DNA from: Massalongia carnosa
Lineage: Eukaryota
DNA: 64,000 nucleotides
Direction: 5' to 3'
NCBI GenBank assembly: GCA_965645245.1
Contig: OZ287070.1
Coordinates: 2,728,001-2,792,000, forward strand
Made by a program: the position numbers and the translations under genes. How positions within the stretch are numbered: the stretch's first letter is position 1; every line of letters begins with the position of its first letter. Below are positions 7,299 through 61,892 of the stretch, piece by piece. The notes beneath the pieces are model-generated. The model made no database searches, was not told the origin of the DNA, and saw only the letters and a list, made by a program, of their open reading frames with translations.

Positions 7299-7525
7299 CA
7301 CATGCCAGCTTGTCGAGGCAAGCACTATATTGTTATGGCCAGAGATGACTTTTCCGGATGGGTCGAGGGTAGAGCACTAGGAAAAGCTACCGCTCAGAAT
7401 GTCGCGAGATTCTTGTGGGAAGATGTTATATGTAGACATGGGTGCTTCGGAAAACTGATTGTTGATGGTGGACCAGAAAATGTTATCGAATTAGCAAACC
7501 GATATGGTATCAAAAGAGTAGTTGT
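7299..7525 (+). pseudogene. Gypsy integrase core fragment (same family as the 27691-29016 integrase)
   Basis: ARDDFSGWVEGRAL...FLWEDVICRHGCFGKLIVDGGPEN closely matches the integrase of Gypsy F. Confidence 0.9.
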
Positions 7526-7722
7526 TGTTAGAATGTACAAATCAGGCTACTTTATTTCAGCCGCACTCACCTTCTACCGCACGAGTATGACGCACGCTAA
7601 TGGCTAGACGTATCTCTAGTCTAATACTAGGATACCGTACATTGTCTATAAATCTAGCTATTCCCACTATATAGAACAAAAGCAAGCGTTCTATCTTCTA
7701 TCTACTATACTACCTTTTGATA
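7526..7722 (+). repeat. 5' LTR of Copia C
   Basis: Direct repeat of 19981-20173 with about 4 substitutions and a 4-bp indel; TGTTAG...TTTTGATA. Confidence 0.93.
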
Positions 7723-7734
7723 GGTTATGAGCCC
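7723..7734 (+). promoter_or_regulatory. Half-tRNAi-Met type PBS (Ty5/copia hemivirus type)
   Basis: GGTTATGAGCCC directly after the LTR. Confidence 0.8.
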
Positions 7735-7982
7735 GGCCGCAGGGCGCCTCTTTACATGTGTTTGCTTGTCTTACTTTACCTACCCTAACACAAGCCTCCT
7801 TACCGTCGCAAACAATTACCGTCACGAATAATCTCCTACAAAAAATCCGACAAAAATCGACACACATGAAATAGTCGGCATTGTTTGAGATAGCTAAGCA
7901 CTACTATCGGGCGCCCGGCTTCTTCTTTGCCCCTTACTAAACGAACGTTAACAATGATTTTAACCTCCTTGCACTTCGTTTC

Positions 7983-8315
7983 GACGTCTCGGATGATCTA
8001 CATTCCCAACAAAAAACCGGGAATGTGACATCCACTTCACTTTGATGTCTCGGATGATCTACGTTCCCAGTAAAAAACCGGGAACGTGACATCCACTTCA
8101 CTTTGATGTCTCGGATGATCTACATTCCCCAACAAAAAATCGGGAATGTGACATCCAGGAGTCTCGGATGATCTACATTTCTAATAAAAATCCGGAAATG
8201 TGACATTCACTTCGATGTCTCGGATGATCTACATTTCCAATAAAAAACCGGGAATGTGACATCTAGATGTCTCGGATGATCTACGTTCCCACCAAAAAAC
8301 CGGGAATGTGACATC
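7983..8315 (+). repeat. Six-unit tandem array (52-61 bp period) of nested hairpins in the Copia C leader
   Basis: Consensus GATGTCTCGGATGATCTACATTCCCAACAAAAAACCGGGAATGTGACATC; GTCTCGG starts at 7986, 8047, 8108, 8161, 8217, 8269. Confidence 0.95.
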
Positions 8316-8796
8316 CATTGGGATGAAACGAAATCTCGCTGCCATCGATTTTGCCCTCTATTCATAGTCAGCATCTGCGTATCAGTTATAAGACTGCAGG
8401 ATTATGGCTTCGAGCAACAAAAAACGCTCTCGATTTATCAATCCCAAAGGCACAACTAAACGCCTCAAATCTATCTTTGCACCTGCATCTGCTTCTGCAT
8501 TTAGATCTATTATATCAATCACTGCCCCATTCCTACGTGGCACTCTTGCCGAGATCCAATGACTATCAGAGCCTCAACCAAATAATAGGCCGGCAACAAG
8601 GCTTGAACGAGATTCTCAACATACATTACAGGCGGCTAGTGCGGCAATCGTTGCTTTTCTCTTAGAGGATAACTCAGATCAATCGAAATTGGATTGCTTT
8701 GTACCATCATCCCTGAGCCTCCAGTCACTCCCGGTCAGTCCAAATCATAATCGGACCTAGAACCGCCCAGCGACTGTGATCCTTTCGGTCTAAGAG

Positions 8797-9027
8797 TGTC
8801 AACCTTTCACATGAATTCAGGAAGGATGAAAAAGGCTTTATTCTGTATGTGGGAAATGCCCACATCTAGCTACCTATATAGAAGGGAAAAGGGGTCATGG
8901 CAGCAACGATATTAACCCCGGCAAATTGAGGGGTAAAGGTGTGGAAGAAATGGCGTAGCTTAGCGGCATCTGCCGCGACAGGGGGTCGAGGATCGGCGAT
9001 GAGAATCGACCACATTCAGGTTTGACA
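8797..9027 (-). repeat. 3' LTR of Copia E
   Basis: Identical by eye to 14392-14622; TGTCAA...TTGACA. Confidence 0.97.
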
Positions 9028-9193
9028 CACCCCCCCAGGATGCGAAGCATCCTGACCAAAAGAAGAAAACATGAAGCAATTCCCATTCGAGAAAAAGGTG
9101 CAATTCTTGCAAAATCAAAATGAGATGCCAGTGAAAAGAAATTTCTGCCCGCCGAGAGGAATTCCGCCCGGTTCACTCCCGCCTGCCCCATTC

Positions 9194-12100
9194 CTAAATC
9201 AGATACTTGATATCAATAAGGCCTAGCATTTCCAGAAAGGAACGATGCTTTTGCGGAGGCAAGGGCTTGGTGAGACCATCTGCCGTCATCCGGTTGGTCT
9301 GTAGATAACCCACATTGAGATGACCAAATTGAACGCTCTGTCTCAACCACAACTGAGCGATGTCCACATGCAGAAGTTTGGTCGTAACTTTGGGCTGTTC
9401 CGATGTCAAAATGCGGATGGTCTGCATGTTATCATTGTAGATTTTGACCGAATGGTCGTTGTCGAATCCCAGCTTGCCAAAGAAATTGATCCACCAGATG
9501 CATGCCTTGCCGGCATGGAGAAGGGCAAGCAATTCTGCCTCTGTCGTCGACGTTGAAACGGTCGCCTGCTTCCTGGCAGCCCAGTCGATCATGCCGCCAT
9601 ACAGCTTGAATGTGAAACCCTCGTAGCTGCGTCGCTCGGGACTATTTGCAAAGCTGGCATCGGCAGTGTTTTCGAAGACATGCTTTGCCGAGAGCTGATC
9701 ATCATCCGGTGACTGCACGGTAAGCTCGCCACCTCCCGAGGGGGAGTATTTTATCGCCAGATACTTAGTCGTGTGTAGATATTGCAGGCAGTGATTTGCC
9801 GCGTCTATATGCTCCGGACCGGGACAAGTGAGATGCTCTGCCAATTTGGAGGCAGCTTTGGCAACGTCAGGCCGAGTGATATTCGCGGGATAGCAGATCG
9901 ATCCTACCTTTTTACGATACTCCTGCCTCAGGGATTGGTCGACTGACCGAGGCGAGTCCGAGTCTGGGCTAGCTGCCGAGGCAGAGGTGAATGCGATGAA
10001 GTCTGACGGTAGCGGGGATGATGGAGATTTAGACGTGTCTATCTCGTATTCAATTGCCAACTTGTCCATGTAGGAGTCTTGACAAAGATAAATGTCGCCA
10101 GCATTTCGAACAATCCGTACACCGAGAAAGAAGCTCAATTGGCCCATGTCGCGTAATTCAAATCGAGCATTCAACTTCTGAATCAGCAGATCTACGTCTG
10201 CAGCTCTACTTTCCGGAAAGATGATGACTATGTCATCCACATAGAAAAAGAGGATGATGCCAGAGTAGTCGGTAAAAAGGCAGGGCTCGCCAGGGATCTG
10301 CTGCATGTCCAATGAGGTGAGTGCTTTGGAAAATTCTCGTAGCCATAGTAGAGGCGATTTTCGAAGCCCGTACAAAGCCCGGACCAGGAGCAAGCATTTC
10401 CCCTCGATGACGAAACCATCTGGCATATACACGTGGATGACCCTATCGGCTTTGGCATTTAGGAAGGCATTGATCGCGTCAAACTGCCTTGTCCTTAGTC
10501 CGAAAGCAGACGTCAGGGCCATGAGGCACCTGAAGATCTTAATTGCCAGCGTAGAGGCGTATACATCTTCTGCCGAGACTTCTTCCAAATCCCCTCGGAC
10601 TACCAGGCGTGCCTTGTATTTTACTAGAAAGCCATCCGGGTCGAACTTGTATGTAAATACCCACATTAGTGGAAGCGGCTTCTGATTGGAAGTTTTGGGA
10701 ATGACGACGAAGGTGTCCATTCTGAGAAGAGTCTGATATTCAAATTCGGCTGCTTTGCGAAATCCTTCTGCATGGGGATGTCGAAGCATACCTCGCCACT
10801 GCTTCGGCGGCGGCGGCAGGCTGTCCCTATGCAATCTGGTCGACCTAGTGGTCACTGCAAATGCCAAATAAACTTCCTTCATCCCGTCATCCAATCCCGA
10901 GTTTGTATTCCCTAGTGGTTCCGAAGCGATGCCGAGTGGTCTGATGCCGAGAGGTGCTGCGAGATTTGCGAATTTCTGCTTCGGTTTTCTGACTCGTTTT
11001 CCTTCGACGATATTGCTGACATCCAATTTGGCAGATCCGATATTCCTACTGGGACCGGTGCCAAAAGATTCGGCAATGCCGAGAGGCGTCCGGCCGGTTT
11101 CTGGCAGATCAGTCGGTAGATCTATGCTACTCGGAAGACTGTCTTTTACCACCCGTTTGTCGCGAGATGTTGAAGAAGATGTAGGTGCAGGTGCTGAAGT
11201 CGATGGAGGCGGAGTGCTCTCGGGAGTCGGAAGATGCTGCTGACTCGGTGAATGTCTCGGCATGATAGGGACGTCTTTCGCAGTCAACGACGCGGGCACA
11301 TCCAGTGCGGACGAATTTTCAACCGACGAAGAAGGATCAGCAAATGACCGATTGCGCACAGATGTCGCCAGCCATTGCTCCTCATTTTCTGCCAAATCAA
11401 CAATGTAGGGAGCAGCATCGAAAACTTCCAGCTCTACAAACTCGGCCACCTTCTCTTCGGGAATCAGATCCTTTTTGACGTATGTGGAGAAGGTTTGATC
11501 CTCATCAAAGATAACATCTCTATATCCGCTGACCGACCAGGTCTCGGGATTCCAGACTCGATAAATGTTTGTAGAATCGTATCCGACCAGATAGCCAACA
11601 AATGCTCGAGGGGCTAGTTTCTCACTTTTTGGCGGGGCATCTTTACCTTTCAAAAGGGGATATGCCTTGCACCCAAAGACCTTGAGATGACCAATTTCGG
11701 AATTGTATGGCTTCTTCAGGGCTCGGTGCAGGGAGATGTGAGGCGATTTCCAATCTAGTCCTTTTGTCGGCGTCCTATTTAGCAAGTGTCCAGCAGCGAG
11801 ATAGCACTCGGGATACAGATCTTCTGGCAAATCGGCGCCGATGCGAATGCATCTAGCCTTCTGAGTCAAAAGGCTTCCTGCCCTCTCAGCCGACCCATTC
11901 TGCTCCTTAGTATGCTTTGCGGACCATTCAAACGCGATTCCCTGTTCCTTGACGAAGTCCTGAATGACGTCTCCAACCGACGTTTCCTGATCCATTCGAA
12001 AGGTCTGAACGAAAAGACCGAATTCGGCTCCGAGTCGATCGCACCGATTTATGACATGCTTGACAATCCTAAGTAGTGTCTCCTGCTTATGATCTTGCAG

Positions 12101-14251
12101 GGGGAAGACCCAATGAAACGAGGTGAAATCATCCTGAAAATGAGCGACGCAGGTGGTCCCATCGAAAGCAGTCCTTTTCAAAATAATGAGGTCAAAATGA
12201 AGACGCTGGAATGGTTTAGTGGCTTTAGTAGCCGAGACCCTTGATACTAGTGTATGCATTTTTGACAATGCGCACGTCTCACATTTCACTGTCTTTGGAG
12301 CATCTTGACCACTGTTACCTCTTGAAATCTCAATCATCTTCTGATTCGACAACTGGTTAATGACTTCCGGTTGGCAATGTCCTAGGCGGAGATGAAATTT
12401 CCATGGCGTGCCTTTTGGGATGGCATCTGCCGAGACTCGGGAACCGACGAAATTTGCGAAAGCACCAGCGTGGCCAACGGGACGATACTCGGCAGTGTAG
12501 AGACCGAAATGCTCTTCCAATTCGAAGATTGAAATACCCTTCTTCTCGACCGTGTCCGTATGCATGTTCCACAGAAATCCATCCTTTTTCAGCTTGCTGA
12601 CCGAAATCAAAGTCACCGATGAGTCGGGAACGTATGCTGTGTGTCGAAAATGCAGAGGCTGATTCTTCCCTTTTAGTGTCCCATTCACCAACATTGTCCC
12701 AAAACCTTCAATAAGGAGATCTCCGTCGGGAGTCGAGACCCACTCGTATGCCGGGATGATTTCGTCAATAAAACGGGATTTGTCCCAGGTCAGATGATTG
12801 GAGCATCCCGAGTCGTAGGAGACGCTGAGATGAAGCAGATTGTCGCGATCCGAGATAGTATTTCCAAAAGAGACTGGAGCATTCTCGACAACAGGGAGCT
12901 CGGCGGGAGCATTGCCATTGCCTCGGCCACGACCTCCATCTCCGCGACCCCCTCGACCTCCACCTCTTCCTCTTCCTCGAGGTTTCAAAGGTTCATCAGG
13001 CTCGGAGATGCCGTTGAGAATGTCGGATGTAGCGGCGCGTTTGACATACCAATAAAGCTTGGAATTGGACCCGATTTTCTGTCGGATGTGGTCGCGTATC
13101 TCCTTATTGAATTTCCATCCCGAGATTCTAGACTCGACTGTCAAATAAGGGCATCTTTTCCAGGAGTGAGTTTCGCCGCAAAGGCATTCGTTATTGCTGT
13201 ACTTGCTATCGTCAGAAGTGGAATTTCCCTGATCGGAAGACTGTCCTTGTAGAGAAGCGGAATTCGCCGAGAGCTGCTGACGACGACCAGTGCTGATTGC
13301 ATTTTCTTCTATCTCGGTCCGATACTCATTGGCGGCCTCGAAGAATTTAAGGGGACGACCTGATACATTTCGTATCTTGATCCAGGTGTCGCAAAAGAAT
13401 GGTGCCCATATCCGAGCGGCTTTCAGAAAGTGCTGAGTGTAGATATACTCACTATAGATGGGTTCAACTTTCAAAGCAACGATTTCTTCCCTCAGCGTTT
13501 CCCATTGGCAGATCCAAGATTCGATCTTCCCTTTCACCGGGTGAGAATTTCTCAACTCGTCGTATTGGCGATCGATCTGCCTTTGAACTTCGTCCGGACT
13601 CTTTTTGAACTTATGGGCCAGGGACTGAAGAATTTCTCGAACCGAGGATGATCTGACATTCCTGGCGACATAATCTTTAGCCGACTCTAGGATGACCGTA
13701 TGAACCTTCTCAATTCCCATGGCTGCGGCCCTGGCATCTGCCTGAAGCCCTCGATGTGACCGTTCATCTGCATTGTACGACTCCTTCTGTGATTCCGAGA
13801 GATCGGCATACCGAGAACATGGTTCGGGAATCAGGACCGGCGGACCATTTAAATCGCCGAGAACTGTCCCTTGAGAAGAACCTTGAGAAGCGACAATAGC
13901 AGGCGTAGGGGTATTGGTAGAGTCAGTGCCAGGCGTATTTGCCGAGACGACTTTGACGTAATCACTGTATTTGGGAAATTTGGGAATGGTAGGTTCCGAT
14001 TCTGATCCTTCCGGATCGACGTACTCCCATACCTGAGATCGTACTGCGATACCCTTGATTTCCGACAACCAGGAATTGTAGGTCCTAGGCGTCAGAGCCG
14101 AGACGATGAGTTTCCGAGACGATCCCGACGAGTAGTCTTCCATTTGGGATAACCGACCAAAGATGGAGACAGATGGGAAAAACAGGGAAACGACCAAAAA
14201 GGCAAAGGAAAACAGAAGCACGAGGAATAAATCAACTCTGCGATGCTCCAT
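9194..14251 (-). CDS. Copia Gag-Pol polyprotein (1685 aa; alternative start at 14143)
   Basis: Knuckle CLCGETHSWKRC, RGG tract, protease YDSGCS, HLRLGH..CETC, integrase core, RT KARLVVRG/YVDD, RNase H ADASF..TEAE..ADGLTK; no stops. Confidence 0.97.
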   Translation of the reverse strand: MEHRRVDLFLVLLFSFAFLVVSLFFPSVSIFGRLSQMEDYSSGSSRKLIVSALTPRTYNSWLSEIKGIAVRSQVWEYVDPEGSESEPTIPKFPKYSDYVKVVSANTPGTDSTNTPTPAIVASQGSSQGTVLGDLNGPPVLIPEPCSRYADLSESQKESYNADERSHRGLQADARAAAMGIEKVHTVILESAKDYVARNVRSSSVREILQSLAHKFKKSPDEVQRQIDRQYDELRNSHPVKGKIESWICQWETLREEIVALKVEPIYSEYIYTQHFLKAARIWAPFFCDTWIKIRNVSGRPLKFFEAANEYRTEIEENAISTGRRQQLSANSASLQGQSSDQGNSTSDDSKYSNNECLCGETHSWKRCPYLTVESRISGWKFNKEIRDHIRQKIGSNSKLYWYVKRAATSDILNGISEPDEPLKPRGRGRGGGRGGRGDGGRGRGNGNAPAELPVVENAPVSFGNTISDRDNLLHLSVSYDSGCSNHLTWDKSRFIDEIIPAYEWVSTPDGDLLIEGFGTMLVNGTLKGKNQPLHFRHTAYVPDSSVTLISVSKLKKDGFLWNMHTDTVEKKGISIFELEEHFGLYTAEYRPVGHAGAFANFVGSRVSADAIPKGTPWKFHLRLGHCQPEVINQLSNQKMIEISRGNSGQDAPKTVKCETCALSKMHTLVSRVSATKATKPFQRLHFDLIILKRTAFDGTTCVAHFQDDFTSFHWVFPLQDHKQETLLRIVKHVINRCDRLGAEFGLFVQTFRMDQETSVGDVIQDFVKEQGIAFEWSAKHTKEQNGSAERAGSLLTQKARCIRIGADLPEDLYPECYLAAGHLLNRTPTKGLDWKSPHISLHRALKKPYNSEIGHLKVFGCKAYPLLKGKDAPPKSEKLAPRAFVGYLVGYDSTNIYRVWNPETWSVSGYRDVIFDEDQTFSTYVKKDLIPEEKVAEFVELEVFDAAPYIVDLAENEEQWLATSVRNRSFADPSSSVENSSALDVPASLTAKDVPIMPRHSPSQQHLPTPESTPPPSTSAPAPTSSSTSRDKRVVKDSLPSSIDLPTDLPETGRTPLGIAESFGTGPSRNIGSAKLDVSNIVEGKRVRKPKQKFANLAAPLGIRPLGIASEPLGNTNSGLDDGMKEVYLAFAVTTRSTRLHRDSLPPPPKQWRGMLRHPHAEGFRKAAEFEYQTLLRMDTFVVIPKTSNQKPLPLMWVFTYKFDPDGFLVKYKARLVVRGDLEEVSAEDVYASTLAIKIFRCLMALTSAFGLRTRQFDAINAFLNAKADRVIHVYMPDGFVIEGKCLLLVRALYGLRKSPLLWLREFSKALTSLDMQQIPGEPCLFTDYSGIILFFYVDDIVIIFPESRAADVDLLIQKLNARFELRDMGQLSFFLGVRIVRNAGDIYLCQDSYMDKLAIEYEIDTSKSPSSPLPSDFIAFTSASAASPDSDSPRSVDQSLRQEYRKKVGSICYPANITRPDVAKAASKLAEHLTCPGPEHIDAANHCLQYLHTTKYLAIKYSPSGGGELTVQSPDDDQLSAKHVFENTADASFANSPERRSYEGFTFKLYGGMIDWAARKQATVSTSTTEAELLALLHAGKACIWWINFFGKLGFDNDHSVKIYNDNMQTIRILTSEQPKVTTKLLHVDIAQLWLRQSVQFGHLNVGYLQTNRMTADGLTKPLPPQKHRSFLEMLGLIDIKYLI

Positions 14252-14391
14252 GAGAGATACGATAATTCCGGCGGCGATACTCAGCCTGCCTAGGATATTT
14301 CGGGGTCGATGAAGGCAGCGATAAATCAGCTTACCAATAACTAAAGTTAAGACGGAGGCAGCGAAAAATTCAGCTAACCCGGGCTCATAAC

Positions 14392-14622
14392 TGTCAACCT
14401 TTCACATGAATTCAGGAAGGATGAAAAAGGCTTTATTCTGTATGTGGGAAATGCCCACATCTAGCTACCTATATAGAAGGGAAAAGGGGTCATGGCAGCA
14501 ACGATATTAACCCCGGCAAATTGAGGGGTAAAGGTGTGGAAGAAATGGCGTAGCTTAGCGGCATCTGCCGCGACAGGGGGTCGAGGATCGGCGATGAGAA
14601 TCGACCACATTCAGGTTTGACA
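14392..14622 (-). repeat. 5' LTR of Copia E
   Basis: Identical to 8797-9027, followed on the minus strand by the PBS. Confidence 0.97.
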
Positions 14623-14752: not shown

Positions 14753-17700
14753 ATGAGTGAAAAAATCTCTAGGTCGAGGTCCTATAGCGCTATTGATAGG
14801 ATCCCTAAGCTAGTGGACCACGAGGGTTATCCAGCATGGAAGCGAGCCATGCGAGATTGCCTCAAAATGATAGATCTTTGGCTCTATTGTGATAACACCC
14901 AAGCTGCACCACGCCCAAACGCTCCCAATGGTGGCTTCAACAAATGGAAAAAGGGCTAAGATAAGGCCTGCACTACTATTCGATTAGCTTGTGAAGGAAA
15001 TGCCTACACCGATATAGAAGACCATACTACTGCTTCCGTCGCCTGGGACCTGCTTGAGTCAAACTATAAGCCTCGCGGTTCGGGATTCCTCAATGGACAC
15101 CTTCAGAAAATTAGACAGCCTTATCCTATCGGATTGCAGCAGCCCTGCAGACTACGTTACCCAATTCCGCGCGACGGTCAATAAGCTTCGCACCTTCTCA
15201 AGCAAGCTAAGCCTGGACGAAAACTGGCTTATCTATCGCTTCCATACCAATTTAGGCTTCGAATACAACAGCTATTTCGAACGATACGCTCAGGATCATG
15301 ATCCTTTCAATGAAATGGGTGAACCCAAGCACACGTTAAGTCAGGCTATGCAGCATTTCCAAAACACGGTGACCAACCCAAGCAAGTCCAGCGATAAGGC
15401 CGTAATCGCAATGGCAGCTGTTTCAAACGCTCAAACCCAAGCAGGAGCACAATCCGGAACAGCCTATTCTCAAATCATCACCAAGACCATCAAGTACTGC
15501 AACCACTGCCGAAAGGACTATCACGTAGAGAGCGAGTGTCGTGAAAAATATCCACCTCGTTAACCAAGACTCACAGCGTAAGTCCAATAAGCGTCGCAGG
15601 AATTCCAAAAGTCAAGGTCCAAGTCAAAAGTCAACCGGAAATAATGACTCAACCAAAGGAGCCTTCTGCGCCTACATGGCCACCGCGGATATAACCAAAA
15701 TATCTAAGCTCTGGATCTGTGACTCTGGAACTAGCCAACATATTACCCACGATCGCTCCATCTTCACCTCATTCAAGACATCCGATTGCCCTCTAATTCA
15801 AGGTATTGGAGGAGTATTAATTCCCAAAGGAATAGGTAACGTCATGTTGCGGTGTGCCGGTAACGAGGGTCTTCGGGAGTTCCCTCTTTTCGATGTGTTA
15901 TACGTTCCGGACGGAGGCCTAAATCTCATCTCCCAAGGACAATTACAACGAGATGGATGTCCCCTGAAGATCGTACCAGAGGGAATTGAAATCGGGAACT
16001 ATGGTATCACCGCTCGCCGCCAGGACAACAATCTGTATATCCTGAACATGTGGAACGTCTCTGAAGCCGCTCTCGCTCTCGCTGCAATTAATAGCGAGGC
16101 GATAAAAATGTGGCACGCTCGTTTAGGCCATCTTGGAAATCAAAATATTCTCAAGCTCGCTGGCATGTCAAAAGGAATGGACCTCACCAAACCCCCGCCC
16201 CAAGACGCCTGTCCTCCGTGCACCATCGCTCAGTCCCAAGTAGAGCCACAACCAGGCAAGCACCCGCTGAACTTAATTCACAGCGATGTCCAAGGACCTT
16301 TCCCAGAAGCCTTGACTGGCGCCAAATATATGGTGACCTTTCTTTGCGATTTCGATAAACGGTCCCACGTCACATTACTGCGCGTCAAAAGCGGAGTCCT
16401 TCAAGCCTTTAAAAACTACAAGAAGCAAAATGAATATGGGGACAAACGAATTAAACGCTTGCAATCGGACTGTAGGGGTGAGTATGACTCCAAAGACTTC
16501 GAGAATTTCGGAAACGAGCATGACATTCAGTGGGAACCTTGTTGGAATACTCGCTTAGCCCCATTAGATCTAGCTCAGCCCTGCAGGCTGCCATGACTGC
16601 TATAAGCAGTCACCTCCGTAGTAATTTCAACATTATGCCGTCAACTGTTTATTTAACAGGTTATGAGTCCCGGGTTTGTGCTTTGCGCCCCTCCGACGGC
16701 ATCCTTCATGCATAGACTACGTACTATCATGTCGTATCAAGAAGATGATGAGGTGAAAGTTCAGACGTGGAAAGCGCGAAAACGAAGCGGAAACGACATC
16801 GAAAGGGATGAGAAACGAAGCGGAAACGAAGCGGAAACGTCATCGAAAGTGGTGTACGTACGAAAAGTGCTGAGGAGGACATCTACAATGGGCGGTGCCT
16901 CGAAGACTTCACATCTTGCATTACTGGTCAGATCAGCAAGGGGAGATAAAAGCCCTGCGATCAGGCCACCAACGTCAATGGTCTGCGGGAAAATGTCTAA
17001 CAGAGACATCGAGAAAAGCCCTGCTCAGGCCATCAACAAAACACGTCCATAGTACTCTTCCCATCCACCCATACACTCACAAAAGCTACGTTTCGAGAGA
17101 TGGTTATGGGTTTAATGAGGCTACAAAGCAGGACAACAAAAGACATAAGAAAGAACTACGTGCTTAGGGAAAATGGAGTCAGAGGGAGCTAGATTCGTTC
17201 CGCAAGGGGAGCGAATCGGACACAGCTGGATGAATCACTTCGCAAGGGGAGTGATAAAAGCTGGATAGTTTCAATTTTGGAGGCGAAAGGGGAGCCACGC
17301 TCGAAGGGGAGTGTTGGAATACTCGCTTAGCCCCATTAGATCTAGCTCAGCCCTGCAGGCTGCCATGACTGCTATAAGCAGTCACCTCCGTAGTAATTTC
17401 AACATTATGCCGTCAACTGTTTATTTAACAAACCTACCGTACCGGGAAATCCACCCATGAACGGGACAGCCGAGCGCCTAGGTCAAACGCTTCACAAGTT
17501 AGCCAGCACCATGCGAGAAGGCGCTAAACTCGACATCAAATATTGGGCTGAAATGGTTCTCACTGCCAACTACCTAAGAAATCGACAACCAACTGCGGGA
17601 CGCTCCATCACCCCCTACGAGTCTCACACCGGCAGCCCACCAGAACTAGGACATCTAAGGATAATAGGACAGACGGGCTATGCTCAAAATCGCAAGCTCT

Positions 17701-19743
17701 CCACCGGATGGAAGAAATTAGCACCAAATGTACTTTAGTAGGATACGAAGGCGATCACATCTATCGAATGATAAATCAACGGGCGCGGTCATGCGTTATT
17801 CCAATGTTCAGTGGATAGATAAAAATCCCCCAACTCCTCCTTATCATTCTCTCAAACTAAAAGAGCCCTACACGTTGGACAGTCAGGACCGCCCACAAGA
17901 AAGCAAAAAATTACCCATCATACGGACGCCCCTCATACGGACTTAGTCGACGCTCATGAATCCATAGAATCAATTCCCACTGGACCTCTCCCATCAAACG
18001 CTGGACAAGAGACATTGGCAAACCAATGGCCCATTGAGCCTCGGTCCCAGGCAGATATTCTCTCTAAGCACCCAAAACTTCGTGCCCCCTCGCCTGACCC
18101 ACTAGCTCTCTTTTCTCTTCTTGCTCGAGCCAATGACCCGGAGCCATACGAGCCTAAAACCTATAAACAGGCCGTAGACAGTCGGGAGGAAAAGGATTGG
18201 CGAAGGGCAATGCAGGAAGAAATTGGCTCTATCAACGAAAATGATACCTGGATCCTCACCTCCCTGCCCCCGGACCGCAAAGCCCTGCGAGGCAAATGGG
18301 TTTATAAAATCAAACGAGGCCCGGCTGGCGAGATTCTTCGTTACAAGGCTCGATGGGTAGTCAGAGGCTTTGAGCAACGTGAAGGCATTGACTACAATGA
18401 GACTTTTGCTTCAGTAGTGAAGCCAATGAGCTATAAAGCCATCTTCGCTATCGCTGCAGCCAATGACTTGGGAAATTCACCAAATGGACGGAAAAACAGC
18501 CTTCTTGTACGGAAGGGTGGACGAGGAAATCTACGTGGAGCAACCAACCGGTCTGGATGACGGGTCAACGAGAGTTTGCAAGTTGAAGAAAGCTTTTTAT
18601 GGCCTGAAACAGTCGTCTATAATCTGGTATGAAACGATCACTACTTTTTTCAAGTCTCATGAATTCGTTCCAGTCAACGCCGACCTTAGCGTTTTCGTTA
18701 AAGAAGGGGTTATCGTAGCCATTTACGTCGATGATTTAACCATCACTGGCTCTTCATCTTCCGAGATACAACGTGTCAAGAAACTGCTCAGCGACGAGTT
18801 CTCGATGGTTGATTTAGGCCCTATCAATTATTACCTGGGCATGACGATAACTCGGGATCGGGCTAATAGGATTCTTCGCCTTGGTCAGCAGGCCTATCTG
18901 GAAAAAGTACTACGCGACCATGGCATGTGGGACACTAACCCCGTAGCTACCCCGATGGATGGGCGACTGGAGGCTGCACCAGAGGGCCATCAGGCCACAG
19001 ATGACTCTCGCCTCCGTTACCAATCAGCGGTGGGCTCTCTCATGTATGCTATGCTAGGCACCAGGCCTGACTTAGCCTACGCCGTATCGGTGGTCAGCCG
19101 TTATACCTCGAACCCGACCGACACGCACTGGAAGGCAGTCAAACGCATCTTTCGATACATCAAGGGCACTCTTCCGTTGCAGTTAACATACAAAGGTCAC
19201 TTACAACCCTTGAACGGTTACACTGACGCGGATTGGGCCGTAGATCATCAGACCCGAAGGTCTACCTCTGGTTTCGTGTTTAATGTGGGTAGTGGCGCTG
19301 TTAGCTGGTCTTCCAAACGACAACCGACAGTAGCCCTATCTTCATGCGAAGCCGAGTACATGGGTCAGACTCAAGCCACCAAGGAAGCCGTCTGGTTGTC
19401 TAGTCTTCTCGACCAACTTTCAGCACCTCAAGTCCCTGGGAATCACTCTCTCCAAACCCAGAGCACCTCTGTAGCCCTTGCCTGCTTGCCTACATCTTTC
19501 GCCCTAAATGCTATCATCATTCACTGCGACAATCAAGGAGCAATGGCTTTGGCCAAAAATCCCCAGGCACACGCGCGGAGCAAGCATATTGACATCCAAT
19601 GGCACTACCAAAGAGAGAAGATCGAAGACAAATCAGTGGAATTTCGCTATGTTCCTACCGAAGAGCAGGTAGCTGACGGCCTAACCAAGGCCCTACCAAA
19701 GGACAAATTTGTTGTCTTTCGAAAGGCTTTAGGCTTAGAGTAA
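14753..19743 (+). pseudogene. Copia C gag-pol, fragmented by stops, frameshifts and a TRIM
   Basis: CNHCRKDYHVESEC knuckle, WICDSGTSQH, WHARLGH, NGTAER, YKARWVVRGF, YVDD, YTDADWA, SKHIDI, ADGLTK. Confidence 0.95.
16540..17430 (+). mobile_element. Non-autonomous miniature LTR element (TRIM), 891 bp
   Basis: Identical 119-bp LTRs (16540-16658, 17312-17430), AACCT TSD, PBS GGTTATGAGTCC, PPT GAAGGGGAG; excision restores host WEP-TVPGNPPMNGTAER. Confidence 0.96.
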
Positions 19744-19980: not shown

Positions 19981-20173
19981 TGTTAGAATGTACAAATCAG
20001 GCTACTTCATTTCAGCCGCACTCACCTTCTACCGCACGAGTATGACGCACGCTAATGGCTAGACGTATCGCTAGTCTAATACTAGGATACCGTACATTGT
20101 CTATAAAGCTAGCTATTCCCACTATATAGAAAAAAAGCAAGCGTTCTATCTTCTACTATACTACCTTTTGATA
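19981..20173 (+). repeat. 3' LTR of Copia C
   Basis: Repeat of 7526-7722, preceded by PPT-like GAGTAGGAG. Confidence 0.93.
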
Positions 20174-20231
20174 AGGATTAGTAAATAGTTCACGGCAAAA
20201 ATAAACATTTAACTGGTTAATCCTTCCGCAG

Positions 20232-34492: not shown

Positions 34493-34828
34493 TGAAGAGG
34501 GGTAGTCGTGGGTGGTGCATACGTGATGACCTCAAGGAGAGAAGACCGGCAGAAAGCAAACAAGGAACACACGTGAAAACAACAAACAGAACGTTGGTGG
34601 TGACGACTCGGCCACTCTGACACTGTCACTCGGACACTGTCACTCGGACACGAATACTGACTCTGAAGGAAAGGAAAATGTTGATTGCCTGTCTGTCTAG
34701 AGGGTGAAACTTCCCCTATCTATAGAAAAATGGGCGCCTCAGCCCCGGAAAACCTCCCCTCCGCTCCGTCCACACCAATCCCCCCCTCCTCTCCTCAGCA
34801 CCTGCCCTTGTCCCTATTCACCCTATCA
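34493..34828 (-). repeat. 5' LTR of Gypsy F
   Basis: Repeat of 26219-26540 with tandem duplication of CACTGTCACTCGGA. Confidence 0.92.
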
Positions 34829-60074: not shown

Positions 60075-61412
60075 CAGTCCCGTGCCAAAAGTCTGCGGCC
60101 CAAACCGTAATTTTCGTGATTTCGCGTTTTCAACTAATCAACCCCCCATCTTCCACCTCATCATTTCACCATGCTTCGTGCTTCTTTGACCCCCATAAGT
60201 GGTAATCGGTCTCGTAACACTGAATTGACGCCATATCAACGTGGTATAATTGTTAGGGCCCAGGCGTTAGGGCACACACCGACCGAGATTGGGAAGACTC
60301 TTAATTTCACTAAATCGACCGTGCAGAGCACCATTCAGAAGCACTCAATTCGCAACGACGGCGTGTCTAAATCACGTTCTGGACGGCCTGAAGTGCTTTC
60401 AGAACGCGATCGACGTTATACCATCAAGCATGCACGAATCAATCCATGAATCACTTATGCACAAATCAAACTAGAAGTGGGGCTCGGCTGCAGTCGTACG
60501 ACTATTTAGCGGGCACTCAAACTGTATGGTTTAAACAACTGGGTGGCTAAAAAACGACCTTTATTGACGCCTGAGGTGGCCAAGAAACGATTGGATTGGT
60601 GCTTGCTGCGGCGTGAGTGGACTTTTGAGCAGTGGTCAAGAGTTATATGGTCAGATGAGTGCTCGGTGGAAAAGGGGTCAGGAAAACAGCGTCAGTGGGT
60701 GTTCAGATTGCCGAAAGAAAAATGGAATAAAGAGATGATACAACCTGTCCCCAAAGGCAAAGGAGTCAGTGTCATGGTCTGGGCAGCTTTTTCGTGAGAT
60801 GACAGGTCAGATCTTTACAAATTGGCTCGTGATTTTGCTGCGAAGAAGATGGGGTACTCGGCGAACTCATATATGGAATTATTGAACGATAATCTGCTTG
60901 GAATTTGGCAACCGGGCCTCATTTTCATGCAGGATAACGCACCTATACATAAGGCTAAAAAGGTGATGGAATGGTTCAATGAGAACGGCATAGAGGTCAT
61001 CGATTGGCCCCCCTATCCACCTGATTTAAATCCCATCGAGCACGTTTGGTATGTGCTCAAAAAGCTCGTCTATCAAGTCAACCCGAACATAGATTTGGTG
61101 AGCGGCAGTGATGAAACTGTTCGTGAGGTACTTTGGAAAGCGTTAGAAGAAGCCTGGACGTTGATAGATGTGAAAATGATGAGGAGGTTAATAGAGAGCA
61201 TGAATAGGAGGATAAAAGCGTGTATAGCGTCGGAAGGATGGTATACTAAATAGTAAAAATCAATTTTTGGGGGAATTCGTGTTTAGTATGTATGTAATCA
61301 TTATGTAAAGTTTCAAGACATTTCAGCAATCGTGACGTGGTTGATTGTTGATTGAATAGAATGATTGAAATGTTGGTGGGGTGCGGGGCCGCAGACTTTT
61401 GGCCTAGTACTG
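60075..61412 (+). mobile_element. Tc1/mariner element D, transposase 60171-61253 with premature stops
   Basis: TA on both sides; TIR CAGTCCCGTGCCAAAAGTCTGCGGCCC vs CAGTACTAGGCCAAAAGTCTGCGGCCC; WSDEC, MQDNA, DLNPIEH. Confidence 0.93.
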
Positions 61413-61892
61413 TAGATCATCCGAGACAGCGAAACGAGGTGCAAGGAGGTGCCTGTTAAAATCTTTGTTAGCGTTCGTTTAGTAAGAGGCAAAGAAGAAG
61501 CCGGGCGCCCGATAGTAGTGCTTAGCCATCTCACACACTGCCGACTGTTTCATATGTGTCGATTTTTGTCGGATTTTTGTAGGAGATTATTCGCGACGGT
61601 AATTGTTTGCGACGGTAAGGAGGCTTGTGTTAGGGTAGGTAAAGTAAGACAAGCAAACACATGTAAAGGGGCGCCCTGCGGCCGGGCTCATAAACTATCA
61701 AAAGGCAGTATATTAGATAGAGGATAGAACGCTTGCTTTTGTTCTATATAGTGGGAATAGCTAGATTTATAGACAATATACGGTATCCTGGTATTAGACT
61801 AGCGATACGTCTAGCCATTAGCGTGCGCCATACTCGTGCGGTAGAAGGTCAGTGCGGCTGAAATGAAGTATCCTGATTTGCACATTCTAACA
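61413..61892 (-). mobile_element. 5' fragment (LTR 61696-61892, PBS, leader) of a second Copia C-family copy
   Basis: Near-identical reverse complement of 7526-8000; PBS variant GTTTATGAGCCC. Confidence 0.93.

Follow-up and report, generated by a model that had tools for sequence, protein, structure and literature searches.

A family-wide array of six hairpins in the 5' leader of a young fungal Copia element, with modest and mixed support for a selected RNA structure

Tandem hairpins lying between the primer-binding site and gag of an LTR retrotransposon raise the question of whether the repeats act as folded RNA, are bound as DNA, or have accumulated with little effect. We address this question for a Copia element of Massalongia carnosa. 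The stretch analysed (hereafter, the window) is 64,000 nt of a 52 Mb genome in 25 contigs and consists of a nest of transposons. A first-pass annotation, based on the letters and open reading frames of this stretch, had described six copies of a hairpin unit and proposed that they form a selected, multimerised RNA element. The array proved to be real and family-wide, and the support for a selected RNA structure is modest and mixed. The parts of the host element and its surroundings are as follows.

7526..7722, + strand: 5' LTR of the host Copia element (197 nt, TG...TA ends)
7723..7736, + strand: primer-binding site, a 14-nt complement of the host tRNA-Met anticodon arm
7983..8318, + strand: six-unit hairpin array in the 5' leader
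8404..8796, + strand: remainder of the leader before the nested insertion, a decayed upstream-ORF-like stretch in common with a sister family
8797..14622, - strand: unrelated nested Copia that splits the leader of the array copy (231-nt LTRs, 5-bp target duplication)
14753..19743, + strand: gag-pol of the host element, broken in the array copy, with a small LTR element inserted at 16540-17430
19981..20173, + strand: 3' LTR of the same family as the 5' LTR
61411..61892, - strand: second family copy in the window, with its LTR, primer site and the opening 19 nt of unit 1 before a Tc1/mariner-like element intervenes

Based on its LTRs, tRNA primer site and protease-integrase-RT order, the host element belongs to Ty1/Copia. 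Its gag starts at 14753 in the array copy, and the leader of uninterrupted family copies is 1195 nt long. The primer site of the family was matched 33 times, including two matches from the sister family, and the LTR pairs of three young copies show 0-2 differences over 197 sites. The five bases that flank the two LTRs of the host element (7521-7525 and 20174-20178) differ, so the array copy may be recombinant. The element inserted at 16540-17430 is small and non-autonomous (119-nt LTRs, tRNA-Met-type primer site, 11-nt tandem array) and has several further copies in the genome. The sequence of the decayed stretch at 8404-8796 suggests a former extra ORF ahead of gag. Between this stretch and the leader of the sister-family locus L210, an upstream-ORF-like block of 24 codons has 10 of its 16 differences at third positions, with 8 synonymous and 5 non-synonymous codons. 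Branch-point and acceptor-like motifs occur just upstream of the array position in both sister families (about 30-50 nt upstream of the array in L031; also in L070 and L210). The window copy has lost part of them, and L296 and L297 lack them.

The array starts about 260 nt behind the primer-binding site of this young family. In the window copy, the units are 52-61 nt long and the spacings are 61, 61, 53, 56, and 52 nt, exactly as first counted, whereas those of the main subfamily are 52, 61, 52, 56, and 52 nt. The exact unit pattern matched 168 times in the genome versus 0 for the control, and the array is present across family lineages up to about 3% apart. Six units were found in 28 of 38 parsed loci, seven in 1, five in 2, and one to four in 7 (some of the 38 loci are fragments, one has an interrupted unit, and two are segmental duplicates). 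The array is thus shared by the family; had it been unique to one copy, the annotation would have regarded its proposal as refuted. Its statement that the second copy in the window begins with the same unit was also correct (61411-61450, minus strand), with the unit cut there by the Tc1/mariner-like element. L296 and L297 have a common array of 2.5 units with an identical junction, and 17 of the 24 upstream ATGs of the leader lie inside the array. The A-rich loop of unit 2 in L082 has received an AT-rich insertion about 170 nt long, which shows a short target duplication.

Each unit preferentially folds into a hairpin of 15 bp, in which one A and one U are bulged and the A-rich loop measures 11 nt. 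The individual hairpins of the window copy are located as follows.

7991..8033, + strand: unit 1, 15 bp with bulged A and U and 11-nt A-rich loop (-19.7 kcal/mol, z -4.7)
8052..8094, + strand: unit 2, first covarying pair G-C, where most other copies have G·U
8113..8156, + strand: unit 3, 12-nt loop in the window copy, C·A mismatch in the young main subfamily
8166..8208, + strand: unit 4, U-A at the second covarying pair and a G·U in the lower stem
8222..8264, + strand: unit 5, U·G at the second covarying pair
8274..8316, + strand: unit 6, G·U at the first covarying pair

A single unit folds better than expected even under a null that allows the best rotation (z -4.6; 0 of 120 shuffles as good), and in the ensemble of the whole leader the per-unit hairpins dominate, with inner-stem probabilities of 0.51-0.99. 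The inner stem drawn in the first-pass annotation is thus present in the window copy, but the full hairpin is longer than drawn, and the supposed linker is its lower 5' arm. An outer GATGTC/GACATC stem, which had been suggested to close within units or across junctions, hardly forms in the leader ensemble: its probability is 0.00 inside single units and does not exceed 0.07 where it would span a junction. A dimer of the array is predicted to gain just -5.2 kcal/mol, and both the outer-stem and the dimer models found little support in folding. Tolerance of G·U pairs had been taken as favouring RNA over DNA. Such tolerance does not single out the sense strand: the summed hairpin energies of a young copy are -95.8 kcal/mol for the sense strand and -104.3 kcal/mol for the antisense strand, which folds as well, yet the whole-array z is stronger for sense (-8.2 versus -4.8).

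Two base pairs covary among the 201 units compared. At the first there are 131 A-U, 64 G·U, 5 G-C, and 1 other combination, with no A·C; at the second, 133 C-G, 32 U-A, 12 U·G, 23 C·A, and 1 other. The double changes noticed in units 2 and 4 of the window copy, the G·U states in units 5 and 6, and the invariant linker are all as originally described, and both double changes fall inside single units. In a neutral simulation with the mutation spectrum of the genome (taken from private changes), the probability of the within-unit double changes was 0.021 with two changes and 0.061 with three; pooled over units, two restored pairs among 5-8 changes had a probability of 0.007-0.079. All three of the oldest one-sided changes yield G·U when read on the sense strand (p 0.03, with a neutral chance of 0.31 for each). 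In a set of 19 units selected to represent the variants, 98.2% of cells are paired and the covariation score was reached in 5 of 500 shuffles, a lenient test given that related rows inflate its result.

These results make some selection on the hairpin plausible, but the claim that variants keep the pairing holds for the window copy and fails family-wide, with C·A at one covarying pair in 23 of 201 units. Unit 3 of main (youngest) subfamily loci accounts for 21 of them. The flanks of these 21 loci differ wherever shown (one lacks the LTR start), and most differ from one another by no more than 0.5%; the mismatch is therefore carried by the recent lineage that has been most successful. In unit 3 it costs about 7 kcal/mol (hairpin of -11.3 versus about -18 kcal/mol). 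L014 and L018, which have different flanks, have three stem-breaking changes in common, namely one deletion in the stem and the mismatches U·U and C·A; one sublineage has spread with three broken pairs. When their changes are counted, G·U makes up three of six inherited one-sided substitutions (p 0.27). The pairs L030/L079 and L014/L016 are segmental duplicates, so changes common to their members were not counted as inherited through transposition. In the decayed L030, unit 1 has acquired a double change of its own where CpA and TpG lie symmetrically, showing that decay can mimic compensation, and contigs assembled from sequencing runs contained the same Copia family with no new compensatory pair. 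The check on family copies that the annotation had called for therefore returned two covarying pairs together with inherited mismatches and no distant homologues. The covariation amounts to two columns in one young family, and it may also have a DNA-level or templated origin.

To place the array among related elements, we turned to other Copia leaders. The sister family has about 58-60% Gag identity, and its leader can be aligned on both sides of the array position, where it has neither such an array nor the CGG block. At that position it contains one short hairpin, with an unrelated 27-nt array further on. Further relatives of the Gag protein, at 53-61% identity, are known from their protein sequences. 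This hairpin (CTACAT/ATGTG) resembles the unit by eye and was rejected as a homologue, having no covariance-model score; the same loose motif also occurs at 9 places among 63 metagenome leaders. The covariance model of the unit found nothing significant in 43 other loci of the same genome or in 80 of 114 metagenome Copia loci. Those 114 loci came from a primer-site scan and are mostly distant Copia (8 with Gag-region tblastn hits at 20-38% identity), and none had a blastn match to the unit. Scans with the Gag alignment gave 117 metagenome, 42 viral, and 46 prokaryote pattern matches, none of them confirmed, and the exact linker pattern had 0 matches in viral contigs and 0 in prokaryote genomes. 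Genome-wide, ATGTCTCGGAC had 32 matches versus 12 for the control, a difference on which no argument here depends.

Arrays as such are more widespread. We surveyed 60 other primer-site loci, taking the first 30 from each of two sets of matches (297 and 172). These loci form 24 clusters, and leader arrays of unrelated sequence were present in 9 of them. None occurred in the 12 clusters whose first long ORF starts within 180 nt, compared to 9 of the 12 remaining clusters, an association that is partly circular in that arrays themselves lengthen leaders. When seven of these other arrays were folded, two did better than chance (z -2.65 and -2.0) and five were unstructured. A distant Copia family (L285-L292, e.g., G000:C1:910700-920000) has a hairpin array of 50/51-nt units, 3-26 in number, at +256 from the primer site; its units contain the word CTCGGA(C/T), are often mismatched close to the loop, and show no double changes, and its exact linker had 492 matches genome-wide.

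Within the family, the stems do not stand out for their conservation. Variants shared among 29 copies (L016 was dropped as a duplicate) fall at 12 of 180 stem sites, 5 of 84 loop and spacer sites, and 25 of 871 other leader sites, compared to 20 of 458 third and 7 of 917 first and second codon positions in gag. Mis-mapping of units and recurrent CpA hits inflate the stem count, which is therefore best read as showing stems no more conserved than neutral leader. Of the annotation's selected RNA element, there remain paired changes that are unlikely under context-aware neutral substitution, set against mismatches spread by recent transposition and stems with no extra conservation. Such stems would suit a near-neutral minisatellite, in which a chance hairpin leads to polymerase pausing, slippage, and amplification, and paired changes result from symmetric C-to-T decay with templating from arm to arm. 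Private changes agree with this spectrum (57 C>T and 54 G>A of 271, strand-balanced, with CpA favoured), as does the mimic double change in the decayed copy; the family specificity of the array, the variable unit number of the distant Copia family, and the predominantly unstructured arrays of other clusters fit as well. We nevertheless consider this origin unlikely. Within-unit double changes are improbable under the measured spectrum, and the bulges have been kept, which arm-to-arm correction would tend to remove. Direct repeats are readily deleted during reverse transcription, yet the number of six units is stable in most loci.

Part of the unit does not vary. Unit positions 2-18, including unpaired bases and bulges, have no polymorphic column among the six units of the young copy L004 (post-hoc chance 0.03), and shared variants are found at 0 of 48 linker sites and 0 of 12 bulge sites, a pattern suggesting sequence recognition by an RNA- or DNA-binding protein. 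If DNA were recognised, the array could be an enhancer or insulator, with the invariant CGG block and two inverted half-sites around an A-tract bound by a host transcription factor that drives the LTR or an internal pre-gag promoter, and with the hairpin as a by-product of dyad symmetry. We regard this as possible but somewhat doubtful. Variation affects one and the same pair of positions in each arm, as in a degenerate inverted site, C·A is tolerated, folding has no strand preference, and CTCGGA(C/T) recurs without compensations in the distant array at +256. However, by our estimate the chance that the shared six-letter word turns up in one of about ten arrays is roughly one in five, and the sister family lacks the block. 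A 15-bp inverted repeat with an 11-nt loop would also be long for a factor site, CATTCY, which we take to be the TEA/AbaA motif, is kept in only 6 of 12 arms of the window copy with the variants falling inside the motif, and matched changes within one unit are not explained by a DNA site alone.

Precedents for a DNA function come from several retrotransposons. The Drosophila copia leader enhancer, the gypsy Su(Hw) insulator, and the ZAM 5' UTR arrays act as protein-binding enhancers or insulators (PMC7168160), and Ty1 uses internal Tec1/Ste12 sites (PMC4619828). The fungal array is a tandem degenerate 5' UTR repeat and resembles the arrays known from the UTRs of other retrotransposons; like the Drosophila ones (PMC7168160), it is a degenerate minisatellite that takes up about 340 nt of an LTR element's 5' UTR. 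In contrast to them, for which DNA-protein binding is established, its units are long bulged hairpins with paired changes, and its role is putative. The LTRs of plant Sireviruses (Copia) contain palindromic CGG-CCG repeats with the capacity to form hairpins (PMC2829016 and PMC4728375). With these motifs the fungal units share their multiple copies, dyad symmetry, CGG content, ability to form hairpins, fast evolution, and location in non-coding Copia sequence. The Sirevirus palindromes are 11-18 nt long and are located either near env or within the LTR, where they precede the TATA box, whereas the fungal units of 52-61 nt lie downstream of the primer site and outside the 197-nt LTR.

A tandem self-cleaving ribozyme, of a known or a new type, is another option; the annotation had listed an unknown ribozyme. 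Tandem minimal hammerheads are reported from Penelope-like elements, and the hammerhead consists of three helices around a core (PMC4209133). In the array, CGGAUGA is present in 6 of 6 units and recalls one of the two hammerhead core boxes, CUGANGA and GAAA. CUGANGA itself has 0 occurrences on either strand, there is no GAAA after the stem and no helix I, and the unit is a plain hairpin without a junction (junction stem probability at most 0.07). An Rfam search to E 10 returned four matches (E 0.21-9.3), all far below gathering scores. Moreover, cleavage at the array would part the primer site from the genome. This option is very improbable.

The reading that we favour, tentatively and with somewhat less than even confidence, is that the array is a candidate platform of redundant RNA hairpins that would serve Gag binding or packaging and, in addition, hinder scanning ribosomes. 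Within the genomic RNA, the array follows the primer site and precedes gag, a position in which retroviral packaging signals lie, and it has been carried through transposition mostly as six units. It may have arisen by template switching during reverse transcription and been kept under weak, redundant selection. The hairpins would most likely serve as repeated binding sites for Gag (nucleocapsid) that mark full-length RNA for packaging, and together with the upstream AUGs they would keep scanning ribosomes off this RNA. Scanning through the array seems unlikely, and Gag-Pol would be made from a shorter, spliced or internally initiated message. With redundant units, mismatches in single units would be tolerated and shorter arrays still copied.

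Retroviral packaging and dimerisation clusters and the 5' palindromes of Ty1 likewise comprise several hairpins between primer site and gag, mostly distinct from one another and conserved across relatives. Unlike the retroviral clusters, the fungal array is homogenised, tandem, confined to one family, and has little predicted dimer gain. A hairpin in the 5' non-coding region of fungal Copia is also known from GalEa elements, in which a single Conserved Hairpin Site adjoins the LTR and replaces the primer site, with the 9-nt CHSeq1 directly after the LTR (PMC5445492). The element studied here, by contrast, has a tRNA-Met primer site after its LTR, and 260 nt separate this site from the array. 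The words 'tandem' and 'UTR' have 0 occurrences in the main text of PMC5445492, and the literature searched, consisting of main texts largely from outside subscription journals, did not describe arrays of tandem hairpins for the leader of any fungal Copia.

A more general proposal is that fungal long-leader Copia elements have repeatedly evolved family-specific hairpin arrays about 250-300 nt behind the primer site as multivalent RNA addresses, and that these arrays also withdraw the RNA from translation. We consider this speculative and improbable. If it were true, the Gag of each family would pick its own genome via the array from among those of dozens of co-resident Copia families; to our knowledge, the selection of their own RNA by the Gag of LTR retrotransposons is poorly defined outside yeast models. 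A test of RNA against DNA function would be made simple by the modular 52-nt unit and its natural variation, which affects both pairing and copy number (1-7 units). Whichever explanation holds, unrelated leader arrays in more than a third of the surveyed clusters point to an overlooked architectural feature.

Repeats of other kinds were also encountered. A 14-nt tandem repeat containing CTCGGAC lies at 34613-34651 of the window, in the repeated end of another LTR element. Another Copia family (L076 minus strand, L223, and L233) has a 115-nt leader array with a higher-order structure built from subunits of about 32 nt.
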